From: an uncultured Dehalococcoidales bacterium
Lineage (GTDB): Bacteria; Chloroflexota; UBA6077; FW602-bin22; JAMCYS01
DNA: 46,120 nucleotides
Assembly (NCBI GenBank): GCA_964566935.1
Contig: CAZMKF010000011.1
Span: forward strand, 1-46,120
Reading direction: 5' to 3'
A model generated the notes under the pieces. That model saw only the letters and a program-made list of their open reading frames with translations, searched no databases and was not told the origin of the DNA. Of this stretch, positions 35,022 to 45,853 are shown piece by piece; the first letter of the stretch is position 1; the number at the start of each line of letters is the position of its first letter. Both the position numbers and the translations under genes were made by a program.

Positions 35022-35570
35022 TCACCGTTTCTCGGCCAGGTAGGCGAAGAAGCCGGCCCGCTTCAGCGCCACCAGGGTGAGACCGCCCAGCAGGCCGCCG
35101 GCAGCGCCGAAGATCACATAGCCCACTAGCGAACGCGCCAGGCCCAACACCACGAAGCCCGCCGGCGCGCCCATCGCCGAGGCCATGGCCCACTTGACGA
35201 GAAACTTGCCCAGGTGGCCCAGTGTAGCCGCCAGCACGGCCACCGGCAGCCGGAAGGGGTTGCCCAGCATCAGCAATAGCGCCAGGTCCGTGCCCACGCC
35301 CACCGCCAGATACGACAGCAGCGTGTTCAGCATGCCGAAATCCCCCAGGCCGAGGAAAGCCGCCAGGATGCCCGAACTCAACCCCACCAGGCTCGCCGCA
35401 CCCGGTTTGGGCACCACGCCCGCCGCCACGATGATGATTGCCATCCAGAAGATACCCGAGTGGCCGGGCAACTGCAGCGGCAAGCGCAGCGCCACCTTGG
35501 CCACCACGATCAGCACCGCGAACATGGCCAGCAGAATCAGTTGGAAGGTACTGAAGTAGTGTTGTTTCAA
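35022..35570 (-). CDS. Six-TM membrane protein, ECF transporter S-component-like
   Basis: About 183 aa with six hydrophobic segments and no soluble domain. It is the last gene of an operon containing EcfA-A'-T. A TTG start overlaps the upstream TGA (TTGA at 35567-35570); the track starts at 35609. Confidence 0.5.
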   Translation of the reverse strand: MKQHYFSTFQLILLAMFAVLIVVAKVALRLPLQLPGHSGIFWMAIIIVAAGVVPKPGAASLVGLSSGILAAFLGLGDFGMLNTLLSYLAVGVGTDLALLLMLGNPFRLPVAVLAATLGHLGKFLVKWAMASAMGAPAGFVVLGLARSLVGYVIFGAAGGLLGGLTLVALKRAGFFAYLAEKR

Positions 35571-36052
35571 CGGGTCAACACCTCTATTCTGTCCACATCC
35601 CGCACCCATTCGTCGCGCGTATCCAGCTCTGGCAAAGGAGAGGCCAGGCGCAGCGTGCCGCGATTAGTCGTCGTGAGCAACACCAGGTTGGCCGGTTCGC
35701 GCACCCTCGCCCATAACAGGCGCGCCTCTTCCCCTCGCGCGGCGCTGCTAACCACTATCGTTGCATCGGCCGGTACCTCGTCCATCGGCAGGCTGAGCTG
35801 GATCACCTCGGCCAACAGCCAACCCACTTGCGCCTTGCCTTGCTCCTGATCCACGAACTCATGTTTGTCAAGGGCTGTAAGCTTCGCAGGCGACAAACAG
35901 GTGCGTTGCTCACCGTCCAACACGATCGGAATGGAGCCCTCTTCTGAATGAGCGGGGGAGGACCGGCCGAACTCGACAAACGCTACCGCAAAACCGATGA
36001 TGACGATGATGAGGACGGCAAGCCACATTCTAATCTGCTCATTTGATCTCAT
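35567..36052 (-). CDS. Membrane-anchored extracytoplasmic beta-domain protein (truncated molybdopterin-oxidoreductase-fold-like)
   Basis: The ATG at 36052 overlaps the upstream TGA (ATGA). It has one N-terminal TM (WLAVLIIVIIGFAVAFV). The domain pattern IVLDGEQRTCLSPAKLTAL...VGWLLAEVI...IVVSSAARGE...LRLASP...WVRDVDRIEV parallels that of 39069-39656. Confidence 0.45.
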   Translation of the reverse strand: MRSNEQIRMWLAVLIIVIIGFAVAFVEFGRSSPAHSEEGSIPIVLDGEQRTCLSPAKLTALDKHEFVDQEQGKAQVGWLLAEVIQLSLPMDEVPADATIVVSSAARGEEARLLWARVREPANLVLLTTTNRGTLRLASPLPELDTRDEWVRDVDRIEVLTR

Positions 36053-38364
36053 CTCACTACCCCAAACCGCCAGGTTAGTACAAGCGCCAGTACCAGGCCT
36101 GCCGACAATAACAGTAGCCAATCCAGCCTGCCCAGGCGCAGCTGGAGACGCGGGCGGCGCTGCGGAGAGTCGAAGCCACGAGCGTAGGCTGCCTCAGTGC
36201 TGGCCCAGGCGAACCTGGCCACCATCACCACCGCCGGCACCGCCAGCGATACCATATCACGAACTCTGGCGCCAAGTTGCCGCCACTCCCATGAGGCCTT
36301 CGGCCAGGCGCCGCGCGAGCGCTGTGCCTCAAAGACGTTACGCCATTGCTCCTCGATCATACCGATGCTCTCGAAGGCCAAGCTGAGGCTGAAGGCGTAG
36401 CGATGAGGCAGACGGAGCCACTCGAGAGCCTGGCGCAATTCCACCGGCGCCGTAGTGTAGAAAAGCAGGGCGAAGACGCTGGCCAGCAATACCACCCGCA
36501 AGGTAACGAGCCAGGCGTGCTCAGGCGAGATAATAAACCAGTCGACAACAAAGAGAAAGCAGAGTACCCACTTCAGCCGCCAGAGCTGAGCCAGCACCTG
36601 CGGAAGTAGTCGCGCCCAGGCAAGCAGGCCGGTGTACATGGCGCCAAACACCAGCAGCGGGTACAGATCCAGCATTACCGCCAGCGAGGAGAAGAGCACA
36701 AGCAGCATCTTGACACGCGGGTCCACCTGCCGGAAAGGCGACTCTTCTACCAGCTGCACCTGCAAAGAACGCCGCCCGCCACCGCGCTGCCTCCTCCTGC
36801 CCGCCTCAGGCGCGCCGGGCTGTTGACCCGCCTGCTCGGCTCCAGCATGTGGCAGCTCGCGCTGCCGCTGCGGCAGTTCCATGGGCTCTGCTTGAAGCGG
36901 CTCGGGCGGCAGTTCCGCCACCACCCAGTCCGGTACCTGCAAACCAATCTTCCGCCAAGGTTGGGGATCGCGCAGCAGCCTGCGTGGGGGACCATCGGCC
37001 ACGATGCCGTCACGGCCCAGCACCAGCAGGCGGTCGGCCGCTGCTGCCAGCGGCAGATCGTGCGTGGTCAGCAACACAATCCGGCCGCTGGCAGCCAGCG
37101 AGCGGCAGATCCGCAGCAACATCTCCTTGTGGGCACCATCCTGCCCCTGCGAGGGCTCGTCCAACAGCAGACCGTGCCTGGGCTGGCGCATCAGCACCGT
37201 TGCCAGGGCAACCCGCTTCTTCTCGCCTTCACTCAAGAGCAGCGGCGGCGTGTCCTCGTAGCTGCTCAGGCCCAGCGCCGCCAGCAGGTTGCGATAGAGC
37301 GCCTCGTCGTGCCCTGGCAGGCGATGCAAGATCTCCTCACGCACGCTGCCGTTGAACAGCTGCAAATCCGCATTCTGGAACACCAGGCCGAAATCGGGCC
37401 GCTCTCCCGCCAGGCTGACGGCGCCATCGTGTCGCTGCAGGCCCGCCAGCGCGCGCAACAGCGTCGTCTTGCCCACCCCGTTGCGCCCCACCACGGCCAC
37501 GAACTGGCCACCGCGCAGGTCAAAGCTGAGATCCTCCAGAATCCGGCGGCCGCCCAGGGCCACGCTCAGCCGCTCAACCTCCAACCGCAGCGGCGCATCG
37601 GCCGGCTTTCGCCATTCGAGCGGCGCTGCGCCGGCGCCACCACCGCTGCGCGAGCCCAGCCGCAACACGCGCAGCGCATCGAACTGGCCAAAGTACTGGT
37701 CGCGATGCTCACAAACGGCCACCACCGTACCGCTGGCAACCAACTGGCGCAGCTGAGTGACCAGATCCATCGCCGCCGTGCTATCCAGCATGGAGAGCGG
37801 TTCGTCCAGGATTAGCACGGGTGGCTGGCGTGCCATCATCGCCGCCAGGGCCAGCTTCTGCTGCTCACCACCGGAGAGGGTGCGCGGCGCCCTGTGGCGC
37901 AGCCGCTCCAAACCAAAATCCGCCAGGTATTGCTGAACCCGCCGTTCTGTCTCGTCCGCTGTCAGGCCCAGATTCTCCAGGCCGATTGCCAGCTCATCAT
38001 CGACGCTGTGCGCCAACATCTGCGAGGCGGGGTTCTGGAAGACGAAACCCGCCTCGCGCGAGAGCCGCCAAAGCGGGTGGTCACTGGTACGCAGTCCGTT
38101 CAGCCAGACCGCGCCCTCCAATTGACCGTGATAGAGATGGGGTATGAGCCCTCCCAGGCAGCGGGCGATGGTGCTCTTGCCGGAGCCCGAGGGGCCCGTC
38201 AGCAGCACCGCCTCGCCACTAGCCAGTTGCAGGTTTAAGCCGCCCGGCAGGCGGCCACCCTGGGGGTAGGTGAAGCCCAGCTCGCGGGCCTCGATCAACC
38301 GCGCAGCGGCCTGCGCGCCAACATCTGACGTATAGCCGGCTAGTCCAGTTTCAGCGGCAGCCAA
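36049..38364 (-). CDS. Fused ECF-type ABC protein: two ATPase domains (EcfA-EcfA') plus a C-terminal CbiQ/EcfT transmembrane domain
   Basis: Domain 1 has GPSGSGKST, LSGGEQQKLALA and ILILDEP. Domain 2 has GRNGVGKTT, LSEGEKKRVALA and LLLDEP. An Arg/Gln/Gly-rich linker follows. The C-terminal ~230 aa are CbiQ-like, with both Ala-Arg-Gly coupling motifs (EAQRSRGA, AAYARGFD). The start may instead be the TTG at 38298. Confidence 0.85.
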   Translation of the reverse strand: MAAAETGLAGYTSDVGAQAAARLIEARELGFTYPQGGRLPGGLNLQLASGEAVLLTGPSGSGKSTIARCLGGLIPHLYHGQLEGAVWLNGLRTSDHPLWRLSREAGFVFQNPASQMLAHSVDDELAIGLENLGLTADETERRVQQYLADFGLERLRHRAPRTLSGGEQQKLALAAMMARQPPVLILDEPLSMLDSTAAMDLVTQLRQLVASGTVVAVCEHRDQYFGQFDALRVLRLGSRSGGGAGAAPLEWRKPADAPLRLEVERLSVALGGRRILEDLSFDLRGGQFVAVVGRNGVGKTTLLRALAGLQRHDGAVSLAGERPDFGLVFQNADLQLFNGSVREEILHRLPGHDEALYRNLLAALGLSSYEDTPPLLLSEGEKKRVALATVLMRQPRHGLLLDEPSQGQDGAHKEMLLRICRSLAASGRIVLLTTHDLPLAAAADRLLVLGRDGIVADGPPRRLLRDPQPWRKIGLQVPDWVVAELPPEPLQAEPMELPQRQRELPHAGAEQAGQQPGAPEAGRRRQRGGGRRSLQVQLVEESPFRQVDPRVKMLLVLFSSLAVMLDLYPLLVFGAMYTGLLAWARLLPQVLAQLWRLKWVLCFLFVVDWFIISPEHAWLVTLRVVLLASVFALLFYTTAPVELRQALEWLRLPHRYAFSLSLAFESIGMIEEQWRNVFEAQRSRGAWPKASWEWRQLGARVRDMVSLAVPAVVMVARFAWASTEAAYARGFDSPQRRPRLQLRLGRLDWLLLLSAGLVLALVLTWRFGVVR

Positions 38365-39026
38365 CAGGCCTCGCCTCGTTCCACAAACAACACGGGGCGG
38401 CCGCCGCGCCGCGCCGGGCGCACCTTCTCCGCCAGCAGCTCGCCCTCGGCCACCTCCGCACCGTCCAGAGTGCGTATCGCGCTTACGCCAGCCCGCCGCA
38501 CCTCCGCCAGCGGCTGCAGGCCGGATAGCTCCCTCAGGTGGCCCAGCAGCACATAGCGGCCATCCTCACCCTCGGCCGCCAGCCCAACCGCCGCCAGCGC
38601 GCCGATCACGCCGCCGTTGGTACCGCCCAGGCCCTGCAGGCTCAGCTGCTCGCGCTTCGCCAGCTCCCAGGCGGCCTGCTGCCCCAGCAGTACGGTCTTG
38701 GCCAGGTGACCAAACTCGGTGACCGCGGCGGGGAAGGTGGCGGCCACACAGAGGCCGGGATCGCTGCCCTCGATGTAGTTGGCCTCCATCTCGGCCCTGG
38801 CCACAGCCGCCACGGCGGCCACCTGCCCAGCGCACGCGTCGGGCAGCAGGATGGAAGCGCTGCTGTTGTGGCTGGTGCAGGGCACCCGCTCGTCCCACAG
38901 CAGCTGGTGACGCACCACTCCCGCTACTTCGTACTCGTTGGCGAGCCGCCCGGCGATCAGTCGCGCCAAGTACCCGGTGCCACGCGTACCCAGCATATCG
39001 GTATCATCGAGACCGACGATGATCAT
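38340..39026 (-). CDS. Stand-alone protein resembling the N-terminal kinase (TCKD / DUF1743-type) domain of archaeal tRNA-agmatidine synthetase TiaS
   Basis: MIIVGLDDTDMLGTRGTGYLA versus the TiaS VGIDDTDS..GMCTTYLA. SDPGLCVA versus TiaS TNPGAVF. GGVIGALAAVGLAAEGED versus TiaS GLIGALAAVGAELED. The comparison is from memory of the A. fulgidus TiaS sequence. The protein is 228 aa with no OB fold or Zn ribbon. Confidence 0.5.
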   Translation of the reverse strand: MIIVGLDDTDMLGTRGTGYLARLIAGRLANEYEVAGVVRHQLLWDERVPCTSHNSSASILLPDACAGQVAAVAAVARAEMEANYIEGSDPGLCVAATFPAAVTEFGHLAKTVLLGQQAAWELAKREQLSLQGLGGTNGGVIGALAAVGLAAEGEDGRYVLLGHLRELSGLQPLAEVRRAGVSAIRTLDGAEVAEGELLAEKVRPARRGGRPVLFVERGEACWLPLKLD

Positions 39027-39068: not shown

Positions 39069-39656
39069 TTACTTCACCTGCAGCTCCACAACCCCCTTGA
39101 CCTGCAGGTTACTGGCGGCATCCGGCAGCACGGTGCTGAAGCCGCCCTTGTTGCGGAACTGCACAATGCAGTTGCTGCAATTCATCACGTCGCTTAACGA
39201 GGTCTCGGCAGTAAAGCCGTCGTCGGCAACAAAGACGATTTTGCTGGCATCGGCAGCCGGCTTGGCGAGGGTCAGCAGGTCTTTGATCAACACGCCCTCG
39301 TAATCGACGGTCTCACCCTGCTTGTTCTTGGACTGCACCTTGATGACGGTCATCTTCTTCACCGCCTCCTCGCTCCAGCCGATGGGCGAACCTACCTTAC
39401 CCGTCACCTTGAGGGCGGAGTCGGCGGGCACGCCGGCGGCTGGGGACGCCGCTGTCTTGCTGGCGGCCGCAGGAGAGGCGGCAGCCTTGGTGGCTGCGGC
39501 GGTAGTTGCGGCAGGAGCCGCGGTTGCAGCTTTGGTGGCGGCAGCGGCAGTAGCCTTGGGCGCCGTGGTCGCGGGCGCAGCCGGAGAGGAGCAGGCCGCA
39601 GTGAGCGCCAGCGCGACGCCCAGGCAACAGGTGGTAAGCACTAACTTAAGAGACAC
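39069..39656 (-). CDS. Lipoprotein with a long Ala/Thr/Pro/Lys linker and a C-terminal beta-domain (truncated molybdopterin-oxidoreductase-fold-like)
   Basis: GTG start with GGAGGA 7 nt upstream and lipobox LTAAC. A linker of about 55 aa of low complexity is followed by LKVTGKVGSPIGWSEEAVKKM...VDYEGVLIKDLL...IVFVADDGFTAE...VLPDAASNLQVKGVVELQV. Confidence 0.65.
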   Translation of the reverse strand: MSLKLVLTTCCLGVALALTAACSSPAAPATTAPKATAAAATKAATAAPAATTAAATKAAASPAAASKTAASPAAGVPADSALKVTGKVGSPIGWSEEAVKKMTVIKVQSKNKQGETVDYEGVLIKDLLTLAKPAADASKIVFVADDGFTAETSLSDVMNCSNCIVQFRNKGGFSTVLPDAASNLQVKGVVELQVK

Positions 39657-39861: not shown

Positions 39862-40716
39862 CTAGTAGGGTGGGCCGATCGTCTCCATTAGAGCCGCCAG
39901 CTCGCGCTTGTCATGCTCGTCCAGCTCCATGCCCGCCGGCTCGCGCAGGTAGGCATGTTTGAAGATGCCCTGGCGGCGCAGCACCTCTTTGGCCAAGAGG
40001 AACCTGTGCTGCTGGCGGGCGTGGAGCAGCGGCAGAATGTGCAGGTTGGCCCGCCGCGCGCCCTCCAGGTCACCTGCCTGATAACGCTCGAAACAAGTCA
40101 CCATATCGGCGGCGCCCATGCAGGCGGGGATGGCGCCCACCACCCCGCGCGCCAGCTCGTCAAGCAGGAACACACCCGAGCTGAAGATCCGCGCCTTGCC
40201 ATCGCTCAACCACATCAGCTCGCTGATCATGTGGCTCGAGTTCTCCGGCGCCTCCTCCTTGATGTACCTGATATTGTCGAACTCCTGGGTCAGTGCCACC
40301 ATCAGGGCGGCGGGGATGGGCAGAGTGTAGTGCTGCAACATAATCGGAATCCTTATCGCCGCGGCCACCCTGCCGTAATGGTAGCGGATAGCACGGGGCG
40401 TCAGCGGCCCCCAGCTGGGCGGGGAGAGGAAGACGGCGGTGGCGCCCGCCTCCTCGGCCGCCCGGCTCAGTTCCACCGCTGTGCTGGTGTTCTCCGCCGA
40501 GGCACCCACGATCACCGGCACCCGCCCCGCCACCTGTTCGATCACCACCCGCGCCATCCAACAGCGCTCGGCGTTGGTCAGCTTCTGGCTCTCGCTCGCC
40601 GTACCCACCGCCGAGACGCCGTGCACGCCGGCGGCGATCAGATGCTCCACCAGCTTGCGCAGGTCCTCCTCATCGATCCTGCCCTCGGCGTCAAAGGGCG
40701 AATAAACGATCGGCAT
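39862..40716 (-). CDS. Dihydrodipicolinate synthase / N-acetylneuraminate lyase family (class I aldolase) protein
   Basis: PFDAEGRIDEEDLRKLVEHLIAAGVHGVSAVGTASESQKLTNAER, VIVGASAENT, and the Schiff-base lysine context IRYIKEE. The start was moved to the ATG at 40716 (MPIVYSPF). Confidence 0.8.
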   Translation of the reverse strand: MPIVYSPFDAEGRIDEEDLRKLVEHLIAAGVHGVSAVGTASESQKLTNAERCWMARVVIEQVAGRVPVIVGASAENTSTAVELSRAAEEAGATAVFLSPPSWGPLTPRAIRYHYGRVAAAIRIPIMLQHYTLPIPAALMVALTQEFDNIRYIKEEAPENSSHMISELMWLSDGKARIFSSGVFLLDELARGVVGAIPACMGAADMVTCFERYQAGDLEGARRANLHILPLLHARQQHRFLLAKEVLRRQGIFKHAYLREPAGMELDEHDKRELAALMETIGPPY

Positions 40717-40954
40717 TACACCGCGCAGTTCATCTGCCAACACCCACCTCCGCGCCCATCTTTCAGACGATTCTGTTCGTCGGTACCATAGCAGAGATGT
40801 CGACCGCCTGGCGTTGTGTGATGAGTTCTGCAAGCGAAACTTGGTAACGCAGGTGGGCAAGACCGAGTCGAGCGCGCCTTAGTGCCTTTCAGGGGACGGA
40901 GCAGGTGGCGGTAACGAACTGCCAATGGCAGCAGGCCCGTCCGCATCCCAAATA

Positions 40955-40985: not shown

Positions 40986-41061
40986 TGGTACCCCTGGGCC
41001 GACTCGAACGGCCGACACACGGTTTAGGAAACCGTTGCTCTATCCACTGAGCTACAGGGGC
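40986..41061 (-). tRNA. tRNA-Arg (anticodon CCU), 76 nt, CCA encoded
   Basis: Folded by hand. Acceptor stem GCCCCTG/CAGGGGT, including G1-U72. D arm GCTC-AGTGGATA-GAGC. Anticodon arm ACGGT-TTCCTAA-ACCGT. Variable loop GTGTC. T arm GGCCG-TTCGAGT-CGGCC. Discriminator A, then CCA. Confidence 0.9.
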
Positions 41062-43945: not shown

Positions 43946-45853
43946 CTAGCGGCCGATCAGCGCGGACTCCAGCCGATAAACCCTCACTTGCTCGTCCTCA
44001 TAGAAGGGTGTTTGATCGGCAAAGGCGACGGCCAGGAAAGCACTGGCACGGCTTTCGGCAGTGGCGGCCTGCCCGCTGAACAGCTGTTTGTGGTAGACCA
44101 CGTAGCGGAAGCCCGCGTGACTCAACTGCCGCACACCGTCGGCGTACGCGGCCAGCGCTTGCGAGCGCCCCGGCTGCAGACCACGCTCCTGCGCGTCATC
44201 GTAAGTAGTAAGCCACGCCAGCACCGGCAAGGGGTGCTGTTCGTAAACGTGCGAGAGATAACCCCAGGCGATCTTCTTGCCGTGCCCCATCTGGTACATC
44301 TGGTAAGTGGAGGCCAGCTCGGGCCAGCCGCCCGGGTTATCGGTGGGACCGAAACCGGCCGGCAGATCCAGTACACCGTACTGCTCGCCATCGCCGGCCA
44401 GCTGCTGGTAGAAGGCAGGAGTCTCGGGTAAGGACGCCTGCAGCCAGGGGCGAGGCCAACTCTCCAGCAACAGCAAGGCGAGCAGCGCCATCCCCAAAGG
44501 CAGGTAGTGGCGCGCCAGTCGCCGTTGAGCGAGCCACTGCAGACCGATGCCCGCCAGCATCGCCAGGGCGATGGACCCCAGCATCATGAAACGGCTGGAG
44601 ACGCGCATGAAATCGAGCCCGGGCAGGCTGGCCAGGAAAGCGAAGGGGAGCACTACCGGCAGCTGGAAATCGGTGAAGGTCGTCTCGCCCCACAGCCTGA
44701 GGTAGGGGCCAAGCGAGAAGACGAAGAAAACCAGGAACAGCAACAGCCAGAGGGCGGCCTGCCGCCGCCGCTGCCACAGCGCAAGAGCGCTCAGCGCCAG
44801 GCCGCTCCAAGGCAGGGTGACCGCCGTTTCGGTGCTGATGCCCACCCAGTACTTGCTGTGCAGCAGACCAGGCAAAAAAGCGGCGTGCGGATTGCGGGCG
44901 CCGGCATCGATACTGAAGAACAGCGGCGCCAGGACGGCGTGGTAGAAGCTGGGAATGAAATACTGCACCAGGTCCGGCGCAAACATGCCGGCGCTGATGT
45001 TGACCTTATAGCGGTTGCCCAAAAGCGGATTGGCAGTGGCCTGGGTAATGGCGTACAGATAGGGGCTGCAGACCAGGATGATGAGGGCGCCGCTTACCAG
45101 CACCCGCCACCAGGCCTCGCGGCGCTCTCCTTCAGGCGCAACCCAGAGATGGTACAGCATCACCAGGCCAACGCCTAGCGATGCATAGATGAACTGGTAA
45201 CCGCTGTACATGGCGGTGAGCAATAGCAGCACCGCCGGCGCCAGCAACCAGCCTCTGCCTCGTCGCTGATCAAGCGCGCGCAGTGTCACCAGCAGAGCCA
45301 GCGCCAGGAAGCCGATGAAGGTCTTTTCCAGATGCTCATAAACGCCGGCCAGGTGGATGGGAGCCACCGCCACCAGCACGCCACTGAAGACTGCGGCCAG
45401 CCTCGCCAAGCCTATCTCGCGCGCCAGGAGGTAACCACAATAGCCGGAGAGTGCCACTGAGATAAGGATGGCGCCGTTGTAGGCGGCCACCGCTCCCCAT
45501 AGCCAGAATGGCAGAGAGAACGCGGCCGCCACCGGCCCAACACCGTCCGTCAATAAGGAAATGCCATTGGGAAAGTAGAGCCAGCTGGTGTCAAACAGGG
45601 GCTGACGGCCGAGCGCCGTCTCCTTGAGGTGCCAGAGCAGCCACATGCTGTGCTTGGGATCGGCAAAACCGGTGCCGATCAGCAGTCGGTCGAAATCGCG
45701 CACCAGCGGCCAGGTGAGGCCGACGCTGAGCAGCAGGTAACCGATGAGCGCCAGCAGGTGCTCGGCGAGCGCGCTGTGTACCGCCGGTCGCGATTGTGGC
45801 GGCAATTGCTGGGGGTTGGGCGGTAGCGGCGCCGGCCGGCTCAGAGCGCACAC
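43946..45853 (-). CDS. Large polytopic membrane protein, GT-C-like (family unassigned) with a C-terminal soluble domain
   Basis: 635 aa with ~13 TM segments. Early loop motifs are WPLVRDFDRLLIG...DPKHSMWLLWHL and LFDTSWLYFPNG. The C-terminal ~170 aa are soluble. It is adjacent to a methyltransferase. Confidence 0.45.
   Translation of the reverse strand: MCALSRPAPLPPNPQQLPPQSRPAVHSALAEHLLALIGYLLLSVGLTWPLVRDFDRLLIGTGFADPKHSMWLLWHLKETALGRQPLFDTSWLYFPNGISLLTDGVGPVAAAFSLPFWLWGAVAAYNGAILISVALSGYCGYLLAREIGLARLAAVFSGVLVAVAPIHLAGVYEHLEKTFIGFLALALLVTLRALDQRRGRGWLLAPAVLLLLTAMYSGYQFIYASLGVGLVMLYHLWVAPEGERREAWWRVLVSGALIILVCSPYLYAITQATANPLLGNRYKVNISAGMFAPDLVQYFIPSFYHAVLAPLFFSIDAGARNPHAAFLPGLLHSKYWVGISTETAVTLPWSGLALSALALWQRRRQAALWLLLFLVFFVFSLGPYLRLWGETTFTDFQLPVVLPFAFLASLPGLDFMRVSSRFMMLGSIALAMLAGIGLQWLAQRRLARHYLPLGMALLALLLLESWPRPWLQASLPETPAFYQQLAGDGEQYGVLDLPAGFGPTDNPGGWPELASTYQMYQMGHGKKIAWGYLSHVYEQHPLPVLAWLTTYDDAQERGLQPGRSQALAAYADGVRQLSHAGFRYVVYHKQLFSGQAATAESRASAFLAVAFADQTPFYEDEQVRVYRLESALIGR

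Follow-up and report, generated by a model that had tools for sequence, protein, structure and literature searches.

What is the kinase domain of an archaeal tRNA-modifying enzyme doing in a bacterial transporter operon? The question is raised by a 46,120-nucleotide stretch of DNA (the window below; assembly GCA_964566935.1, contig CAZMKF010000011.1, positions 1 to 46,120) from an uncultured Dehalococcoidales bacterium of the Chloroflexota, in which a 228-residue protein resembling the Thr18-Cyt34 kinase domain (TCKD) of TiaS, the archaeal tRNA(Ile2) agmatidine synthetase, is encoded beside an energy-coupling factor (ECF) transporter. A preliminary description of the locus, made from the sequence without database searches, took the protein for a stand-alone bacterial homologue of this domain with a role in small-molecule chemistry. 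We find that the homology is genuine, and that this TCKD-like family is embedded, across phyla, in loci for the transport, storage, regulation and cofactor use of tungsten and molybdenum (W/Mo). The gene and its parts lie as follows.

38340..39026, minus strand: TCKD-like protein gene, 228 aa plus stop with an ATG start, from the list of open reading frames (ORFs).
38562..39026, minus strand: N-terminal TCKD domain, residues 1-155, from hhalign, Foldseek, PDB profile matches and invariant columns.
38976..38978, minus strand: codon of Thr17, placed opposite Thr18 of A. fulgidus TiaS in HMMER and hhalign alignments.
38343..38561, minus strand: C-terminal beta-rich domain, residues 156-228, family-specific, from conservation and an AlphaFold model of the domain alone.

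When the window protein is searched as a single sequence, the evidence for similarity to TiaS is weak. The Pfam model TiaS_TCKD (PF22641) matches residues 3-41 with E = 0.014 and 15.9 bits, where the gathering score is 27, the NCBIfam TiaS model (NF040849) gives E = 0.005 with a score below its equivalog cut-off, and the TiaS structure 4rvz is matched in the PDB at E = 0.44. Relatives at 56-59% identity to the window protein score 28-37 bits against PF22641, over the 27-bit threshold. As single-sequence searches are too weak to decide the matter, profile, hhalign and fold comparisons were used in their place, the first two based on a pair of alignments: A1, a family alignment and profile of 40 close homologues, and A2, an alignment of 34 members drawn from different clades at 31-45% identity. 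Searched against the PDB, the A1 profile matches TiaS entries 3amt, 3au7 and 4rvz at E ~1.5e-5 and the P. furiosus TiaS fragment 3u02 at E 2.6e-8, over residues 2-149, and hhalign of A2 against two TiaS TCKD sequences returns a probability of 99.15% (E 3.6e-19, 145 columns). An AlphaFold model of the protein (pLDDT 91.5, pTM 0.88) was compared with the PDB by Foldseek, and TiaS chains were the sole significant matches (E ~1e-7, 24% identity, ~155 columns, rmsd ~3 A; prob 1.0 for 3amt, 5xob and 4rvz), the next match standing at E 9e-3. This profile and structural evidence is decisive: residues 1-155 are a true homologue of the TiaS TCKD, as the preliminary description had proposed.

The three motifs on which that proposal was built are all present in the ORF and conserved in the family, VGLDDTD...GTGY at residues 4-19, DPG at residues 89-91 (within GSDPG, 87-91) and GVIGALAAVG at residues 139-148. 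Residues invariant throughout A2 are D7, D8, T9, D10, G16, T17, R39, T51, N54, G139, G142, A143, G156 and P204. Among these, T17, the Thr of GTGY, is also invariant in the 40 close homologues, and it aligns in both HMMER and hhalign with Thr18 of TiaS, the residue at which that enzyme autophosphorylates. The site is thus conserved, not replaced; GTGY here versus CTTY in TiaS had earlier been raised as a possible difference, and for this Thr none is found.

What the protein shares with TiaS ends at about residue 155. A ferredoxin-like domain was not found, the Foldseek alignments to TiaS and to 3u02 ending at ~155 columns; neither an OB fold nor a Zn ribbon was found in a protein that ends at residue 228, with no Pfam domain past ~155; and the sequence contains no cluster of Cys. 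The short TiaS alignments, the lack of a further Pfam domain and of a Cys cluster together indicate that the ferredoxin-like domain, the OB fold and the Zn ribbon are all missing, which agrees with the earlier reading of a ~228-residue protein without OB fold and Zn ribbon and adds the ferredoxin-like domain to the absences. In place of these tRNA-holding modules stands a beta domain of ~70 aa. It is as conserved as the TCKD itself, with motifs DGRY, RPARR and W-x-P-x-KLD in A1 and A2, nearly every full-length representative of a cluster has it together with the TCKD, and when modelled alone it is predicted to be small and beta-rich (pLDDT 84). The preliminary description recognised nothing in this part of the protein, and neither do the databases: Pfam gives no match for the domain in the window protein or its relatives, and a Foldseek search of the PDB with the domain alone gives nothing significant (best E = 2), TiaS included. 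A Mop/TOBE, OB or ferredoxin-like fold was considered and dropped for lack of Pfam or Foldseek support, as was a PRC-barrel-like fold, for which the best Foldseek matches have E >= 2 and prob 0.02.

The family to which the window protein belongs is large. Its own branch holds at least 3921 homologues of ~228 aa each, and the Bacteroidota branch, retrieved with the representative P0240, at least 4004 proteins, both totals being lower bounds counted in clusters of 90% sequence identity (at least 3,900 for the first, at least 4,000 for the second). At 50% identity the family falls into 1160 clusters, ~300 of them of strong match (E < 1e-30), and it spans Chloroflexota, Bacteroidota, Spirochaetota and other lineages. 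Apparent fusions among the representatives (P0263, P0238, P0128 and P0188) were rejected as Rosetta-stone evidence; they resemble over-extended or frameshifted ORFs, or insertions. Many members are named "tRNA(Ile2) C34 agmatinyltransferase TiaS" by JGI and some "ABC transporter substrate-binding protein" by NCBI. Both labels look wrong. For the latter, the protein is cytoplasmic and has neither a signal peptide nor a transmembrane segment, it matches no substrate-binding protein model in Pfam or NCBIfam, and it has the TCKD fold. Bacterial TCKD-only proteins are thus already visible in databases through PF22641 matches and JGI labels, and our literature searches found no description of the family or of its W/Mo link; it is the context and the likely role that are new.

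In the window the TCKD-like gene is the second of five tightly packed genes on the minus strand, in the order lipoprotein, TCKD-like protein, fused EcfA-EcfA'-EcfT (EcfAAT), U164 and S component. Its four companions are these.

39069..39656, minus strand: lipoprotein, the operon's first gene, with lipobox LTAAC, an Ala/Thr/Pro-rich linker and a small domain of putative SUOX fold, PruR-like.
36049..38364, minus strand: fused EcfA-EcfA'-EcfT, 771 aa as the longest ORF, with two Pfam ABC_tran domains and one CbiQ domain.
35567..36121, minus strand: U164, a membrane-anchored protein with one N-terminal transmembrane helix, from the ORF list.
35022..35609, minus strand: YkoE-like ECF S component, a multi-pass membrane protein with a PGHSGIFWMA motif, Pfam PF09819 ABC_cobalt.

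The lipoprotein gene is separated from the TCKD-like gene by 42 nt, a Shine-Dalgarno sequence, GGAGG, lies 7 nt 5' of the TCKD-like ATG, and the longest EcfAAT ORF (putative TTG start at 38364) overlaps the TCKD-like stop, so that "welded into a transporter operon", the wording of the preliminary description, is apt. That the operon encodes an ECF transporter follows from the joint presence of two ATP-binding cassette (ABC) ATPases, a CbiQ-type T domain (aa 541-735 of the fusion) and an S component. EcfAAT matches NCBIfam ECF_ATPase_1 at E 9e-79 and 264.7 bits, below the equivalog cut-off of 315, and the S component matches PF09819 at E 9e-8 and 32.7 bits, above the cut-off of 25.2. The second ATPase domain of the fusion is joined to the T domain by a Pro/Gln/Arg/Gly-rich linker at ~aa 480-525. 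Related loci have this ECF module in fused form or distributed over two or three genes.

The start of U164 is probably the ATG at 36052 and not the listed TTG at 36121, and the overlap of this ATG with the EcfAAT stop (ATGA, 36049-36052) suggests translational coupling. The U164 family has an extracytoplasmic domain of ~125 aa with motifs EEGKTQEGWLL and GRGTLKL, and a homologue (~164 aa) is found in 57-60 loci, always between EcfT and the S component. U164 has no match in Pfam, NCBIfam or the PDB. A kinship with the SUOX-like lipoprotein was considered and rejected, the likeness being a loose pattern with an hhalign E of 0.1, which is not significant.

Assignment of the lipoprotein as PruR/SUOX-like is marginal at the level of sequence comparison: Pfam Oxidored_molyb is matched at E 1.4e-4, below threshold, and the best PDB matches of the family profile are to PruR (7kos at E 9.5e-4, then 7kom, 7rkb and 7kp2, E 9.5e-4 to 0.05). 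Its folded domain has a nearly invariant C-x-x-C motif and is joined to the lipobox by a low-complexity tether of ~50 residues rich in Ala, Thr, Lys and Pro. PruR is a periplasmic protein with a degenerate SUOX fold, the fold that binds the molybdenum cofactor (Moco), and it binds pterins (PMC11194511).

To see what accompanies the family elsewhere, partner genes were mapped by tblastn in 86 loci, mostly from Anaerolineae, with some from Spirochaetota and one from a metagenome-assembled genome labelled Bathyarchaeota. The window protein is 54-61% identical to orthologues at loci that carry W/Mo genes. Two arrangements recur: that of the window itself (lipoprotein, TCKD, EcfAAT, U164, S, all in one direction), and one with a gene like that of the molybdenum storage protein (MoSto), in the order MoSto-like > DUF134 < small-83aa < TCKD > (EcfAAT U164 S). 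Often adjoining are Wtp-type ABC genes, extra SUOX-like copies and the series MoaA-MoaC-MoaD-MoaE-MoeA-MogA. The ECF A-A-T genes with U164 and S stand directly 3' of the TCKD-like gene in 47/62 loci, a MoSto-like gene lies within 2.5 kb of it in 28/72, and a SUOX-like lipoprotein gene lies directly 5' of it in 25/72; among the 56 loci with both flanks, 53 have at least one of the ECF, MoSto, OxM, Wtp or Moco genes. The AA_kinase neighbour proves homologous to the molybdenum storage protein (MosB E 1.7e-73 and MosA 3.5e-50, as compared with 3e-11 for UMP kinase), and the binding protein nearby is recognised by NCBIfam as WtpA, with a score over the cut-off.

Some further details of these loci may be recorded. 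MoSto homologues lie at L002:5324-6160 and in L108, L120, L128 and L135, and close homologues of the Azotobacter molybdenum storage protein (MosB) occur widely in Anaerolineae and in other metagenomic lineages, beside the TCKD-like gene mostly as a single gene with no obvious MosA/MosB pair. Directly 5' of the TCKD-like gene and adjoining the MoSto homologue, 23-25 of 72 loci carry a divergent DUF134 DNA-binding protein together with a protein of ~83-94 aa (KIFVRERRH..., no family match; L002:6278-6907), which may form a dedicated regulator pair. In one Chloroflexota genome an IS200/IS605-type Y1 transposase gene (L001:7915-8475) splits the TCKD-like gene from the ECF ATPase gene.

In Bacteroidota the TCKD-like gene keeps W/Mo company of a different make-up. 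The 5' part of the locus holds aldehyde:ferredoxin oxidoreductase (AFOR, of a tungsten enzyme family), ThiS/ThiF-like (MoaD/MoeB-like) proteins, Ppnp, a ModE-type helix-turn-helix protein and sometimes a WtpA-like binding protein, and from the TCKD-like gene onwards come a 185-191-aa membrane protein, a ~300-aa lipoprotein, a TonB-dependent receptor, MoeA, MoaA and MoaC. The membrane protein is homologous to the S component of the window (blastp E 4.5e-9), with a shared PGH[SH]GI motif, and this S-like permease lies directly 3' of the TCKD-like gene in 3/3 loci. The reciprocal check, starting from the Bacteroidota permease, finds in 3/3 loci that a gene for 248-253 aa, TCKD-like in length and position, overlaps the permease start. 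For about twenty more of the permease matches, the contig has a length that also occurs among the contigs of TCKD-like matches. No ABC ATPase or CbiQ domain occurs among the called genes of the Bacteroidota loci, an ABC ATPase is found in 0/6 loci with Pfam-annotated neighbours (L087-L089, L170-L172), and in L089 a WtpA-like binding protein adjoins without an ABC permease or ATPase gene. These six loci also keep a 93-aa Ppnp/DUF1255 cupin, and some have a DUF364 (+DUF4213) protein; the ~300-aa lipoprotein, just 5' of the TonB-dependent receptor, belongs to no known family.

A more diverse set of 80 metagenome loci, fetched with A2, was analysed by ORF clustering and a permease HMM, antisense shadow ORFs of the first pass, which arise in high-GC DNA, being discarded by a strand criterion. 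In 39 of 59 loci the S-like permease gene directly follows that of the TCKD-like protein, and a CbiQ/T gene is present in 3 of the 28 loci with long flanks. Across phyla, then, no gene adjoins the TCKD-like gene more often than that of the S-type permease, whether or not an ECF module is also there. The other recurrent type has the order small-83aa < MoSto > TCKD > TupA-like TupB-like ABC. NCBIfam models identify among the metagenome neighbours TupA/TupB-like proteins (below equivalog cut-offs), a ModE repressor domain and a GntR-family regulator that matches, in its C-terminal part, the model of a molybdopterin biosynthesis protein. A tabulation of the gene neighbourhoods of TCKD-only proteins had been recommended in the preliminary description; the link to W/Mo transport, MoSto, ModE-like regulators, Moco and AFOR that it brings out had been missed there.

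How should this association be read? Our preferred reading, to which we give even chances, is that the TCKD-like protein is a cytoplasmic accessory enzyme of W/Mo or molybdopterin-type pterin acquisition that phosphorylates or otherwise activates the cargo, and not a tRNA modifier. Background for the chemistry comes from TiaS, which cleaves ATP and then transfers a phosphoryl group to a carbonyl oxygen; its ATP cleavage, O-phosphorylation and the role of Thr18 were reportedly described by Terasaka et al. 2011 and Osawa et al. 2011 (NSMB). By analogy with TiaS, the TCKD-like protein would bind Mg-ATP at the conserved TCKD site, and cargo freed on the cytoplasmic side by the S component would be phosphorylated or otherwise activated, possibly by way of a phospho-Thr17 state. 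The activated cargo would then be trapped in the cell and made ready for transfer to MoSto for storage or to MoeA for cofactor assembly, with the C-terminal domain supplying recognition of cargo or partner. The imported compound, which the preliminary description left unnamed, is probably either a W/Mo oxyanion or a molybdopterin-type pterin: ModE-like regulators and WtpA-like proteins beside systems with an S component alone favour an oxyanion, while a pterin or cofactor would also be compatible with the TonB-dependent receptor, with an S component of vitamin type and with the PruR/SUOX-like lipoprotein. A bolder version, in which the TCKD-like protein and the S component are the core of an undescribed W/Mo uptake system and the TiaS-fold enzyme uses ATP to phosphorylate or adenylylate tungstate, molybdate or a salvaged molybdopterin-type pterin, seems to us doubtful. 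On that version, capture of the pterin outside the cell would fall to the PruR/SUOX-like lipoprotein, or in Bacteroidota to the lipoprotein and TonB-dependent receptor.

As had been suggested earlier, the genomic context speaks far more strongly for a small-molecule role than for one in tRNA modification, and that role can now be narrowed to W/Mo or pterin acquisition. Activation or trapping of an imported compound fits the occurrence of the TCKD-like gene beside an S-type permease alone in other phyla, the chemistry itself being deduced. Several observations nonetheless weigh against an accessory enzyme of this kind. ATP binding, catalysis and Thr17 phosphorylation are read solely from conserved motifs. 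In about a quarter of loci the permease is absent nearby and MoSto or Tup genes are found instead, so the coupling is not obligatory. The 46-kb window contains no Moco, Wtp, Tup or MoSto genes, and the W/Mo link of its operon derives from orthology to W/Mo loci and from the PruR/SUOX-like lipoprotein, a marginal match (E ~1e-3 to 1e-4). A mixed anhydride of tungstate or molybdate is hydrolytically unstable, and we know of no kinase that acts on either oxyanion. Finally, the ECF module of Chloroflexota already supplies ATP energy, so that a trapping enzyme is not strictly needed there.

Three other explanations can be set beside this one. The TCKD-like protein might be a non-catalytic acceptor or chaperone, in which the former triphosphate site, with its Mg2+ and DDTD motif, binds tungstate, molybdate or the cofactor and passes it to MoSto or MoeA without ATP. 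Tetrahedral oxyanions mimic phosphate, as general chemistry has it, so that a phosphate site is plausible as an oxyanion site, and the TCKD-like gene often adjoins MoSto, Wtp and Tup genes even without a permease; the NCBI name given above also hints at a grouping with binding proteins, although no model supports that name. Against this, the three Asp, the phospho-acceptor Thr, the Arg and the Asn are invariant down to ~31% identity, a pattern more enzyme-like than binder-like, and neither Pfam nor Foldseek detects similarity to a molbindin/TOBE or periplasmic binding fold. We regard a pure binder as unlikely. Alternatively, the cargo may pass unmodified and the protein may energise or gate the S-type permease, ATP binding or hydrolysis, or Thr17 autophosphorylation, driving or regulating a conformational change; it would then replace the ECF module in Bacteroidota and act as a regulator beside that module in Chloroflexota. 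The overlap or abutment of the permease and TCKD-like genes in Bacteroidota and many metagenomic loci is as expected on this account, and so are the scarcity of ABC ATPases (0/6 Pfam-annotated loci) and T components (3/28 long-flank metagenome loci) and the WtpA-like neighbour in L089 that has neither ABC permease nor ATPase gene. Yet docking of a TCKD-fold protein onto a membrane protein has no precedent, the family also occurs away from the permease, and solitary S components of the BioY type are generally known to work without a dedicated motor; we would accord a role of this kind a small chance.

The third alternative takes the JGI name at its word: a genuine RNA-modifying enzyme with a different recognition domain, acting on tRNA or another RNA. 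The TCKD homology, the retention of the catalytic motifs and of the Thr18 equivalent and the JGI names themselves are what such an enzyme would have, but the ferredoxin-like, OB and Zn-ribbon domains are gone, and the equivalog model for TiaS gives 15.4 bits against a cut-off of 600. The neighbourhoods examined across phyla consist of transport, storage and cofactor genes and never include translation or RNA genes, and bacteria generally decode AUA with lysidine made by TilS. Nor does the window offer a link to tRNA: its sole tRNA is tRNA-Arg(CCU), not tRNA-Ile2, and it lies 2 kb off, with a DHDPS-family gene between it and the operon. An RNA substrate is accordingly very improbable, and an accessory enzyme of W/Mo or pterin acquisition remains the reading that we prefer.

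Elsewhere in the window are genes for polysaccharide biosynthesis, for a 5'-nucleotidase and for a DUF4272 protein, together with the features listed here.

40986-41061, minus strand: tRNA-Arg(CCU), with a good sigma-70-like promoter match at 41120-41091.
39862-40860, minus strand: DHDPS-family gene between tRNA-Arg(CCU) and the operon, unrelated to the latter.
43946-45853, minus strand: ORF of 635 aa with no Pfam match.

No Moco riboswitch or other cis-regulatory RNA was found 5' of the operon, where only the tRNA and a sub-threshold sRNA match occur, and a scan for consensus promoters and terminators was uninformative for the operon. GC content is 0.51-0.56 at 1-14 kb and at 22-34 kb, the latter region being that of polysaccharide biosynthesis, and 0.61-0.67 at 16-20 and 36-46 kb.

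Hitherto the TCKD, a rare kinase fold, was known from a single archaeal tRNA enzyme. It now appears in a large bacterial radiation whose second domain differs and whose consistent link to W/Mo genes had not been remarked on before. The names "TiaS" and "ABC transporter substrate-binding protein" would, as a systematic mis-annotation, mislead metabolic reconstruction. Should the proposed role prove correct, the family would be a missing component of trace-metal or cofactor acquisition in lineages abundant in the environment or associated with the gut (Anaerolineae, Bacteroidota, Spirochaetota), and would account for orphan YkoE-like S components without ECF modules; W/Mo-dependent phenotypes of the two-gene module would then be a testable hypothesis. 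On the bolder version given above, the TCKD fold would gain its first small-molecule substrate, and the system would either join Mod, Wtp and Tup as a fourth means of acquiring W/Mo or be the first transporter for Moco or pterin salvage in bacteria.

How does the locus compare with systems already described? The lipoprotein resembles PruR (7KOS, 7KOU; PMC11194511) in being a small secreted domain made up almost wholly of a SUOX-like fold, as far as a marginal match allows; PruR partners with the c-di-GMP enzyme DcpA (PMC11194511), whereas the lipoprotein is encoded with a transporter, and its family has a C-x-x-C motif that is not described for PruR. As regards the TCKD itself, the best single-sequence NCBIfam match of the window protein is to the archaeal methanogenesis marker protein 11 (TIGR03280; E 5e-7, 29.1 bits, under the cut-off of 255.8), positions 135-287 of whose 292 align with TCKD-like residues 2-154. 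This partial match suggests that the marker family carries a TCKD-like C-terminal half and so represents another TCKD outside TiaS; there the TCKD-like part is C-terminal and the family is restricted to methanogens, whereas in the window protein this part is N-terminal.

Among transporters, the closest likeness is to YkoE-type ECF systems (YkoEDC; PF09819), since the window operon likewise combines EcfA-A'-T with a PF09819 S component. YkoEDC serves thiamine, in contrast to the W/Mo context of the TCKD-like operon and its extra extracytoplasmic partners, the PruR/SUOX-like lipoprotein and U164, and in other phyla the S-like permease is found with the TCKD-like protein in the absence of any ECF module. 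The pairing of a permease with an enzyme that uses ATP in the cytoplasm is reminiscent of the metabolic trapping known from vitamin salvage, although to our knowledge the TCKD fold has not been reported for small-molecule kinases.

With the W/Mo systems ModABC, WtpABC, TupABC and MosAB the relationship is one of gene neighbourhood alone: WtpA, TupA/B-like proteins, a MosB homologue and ModE-like regulators co-localise with the family in many loci, and the TCKD-like protein itself has no match to ModA/WtpA/TupA, ModB, ModC, MosA/B or Mop/TOBE. We know of no W/Mo uptake or storage system (Mod, Wtp, Tup, MosAB) that includes a TCKD-like protein or an ECF S-type permease. With TiaS (3AMT, 3AMU, 3AU7, 4RVZ, 5XOB; fragment 3U02) the relationship is one of homology. 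The N-terminal ~155 residues of the TCKD-like protein have the same TCKD fold, and the two share G-[IL]-DDTD, the Thr aligned with Thr18, an Arg, [DN]PG and G-x-IGALAAVG, with P-x-T-x-x-N here corresponding to PYKTRGN in TiaS. Three of the four domains of TiaS are absent from the TCKD-like protein, which has the ~70-aa beta domain instead, and while TiaS is an archaeal enzyme in a translation context, the TCKD-like protein is bacterial and its context is the transport, storage and cofactor use of tungsten and molybdenum.

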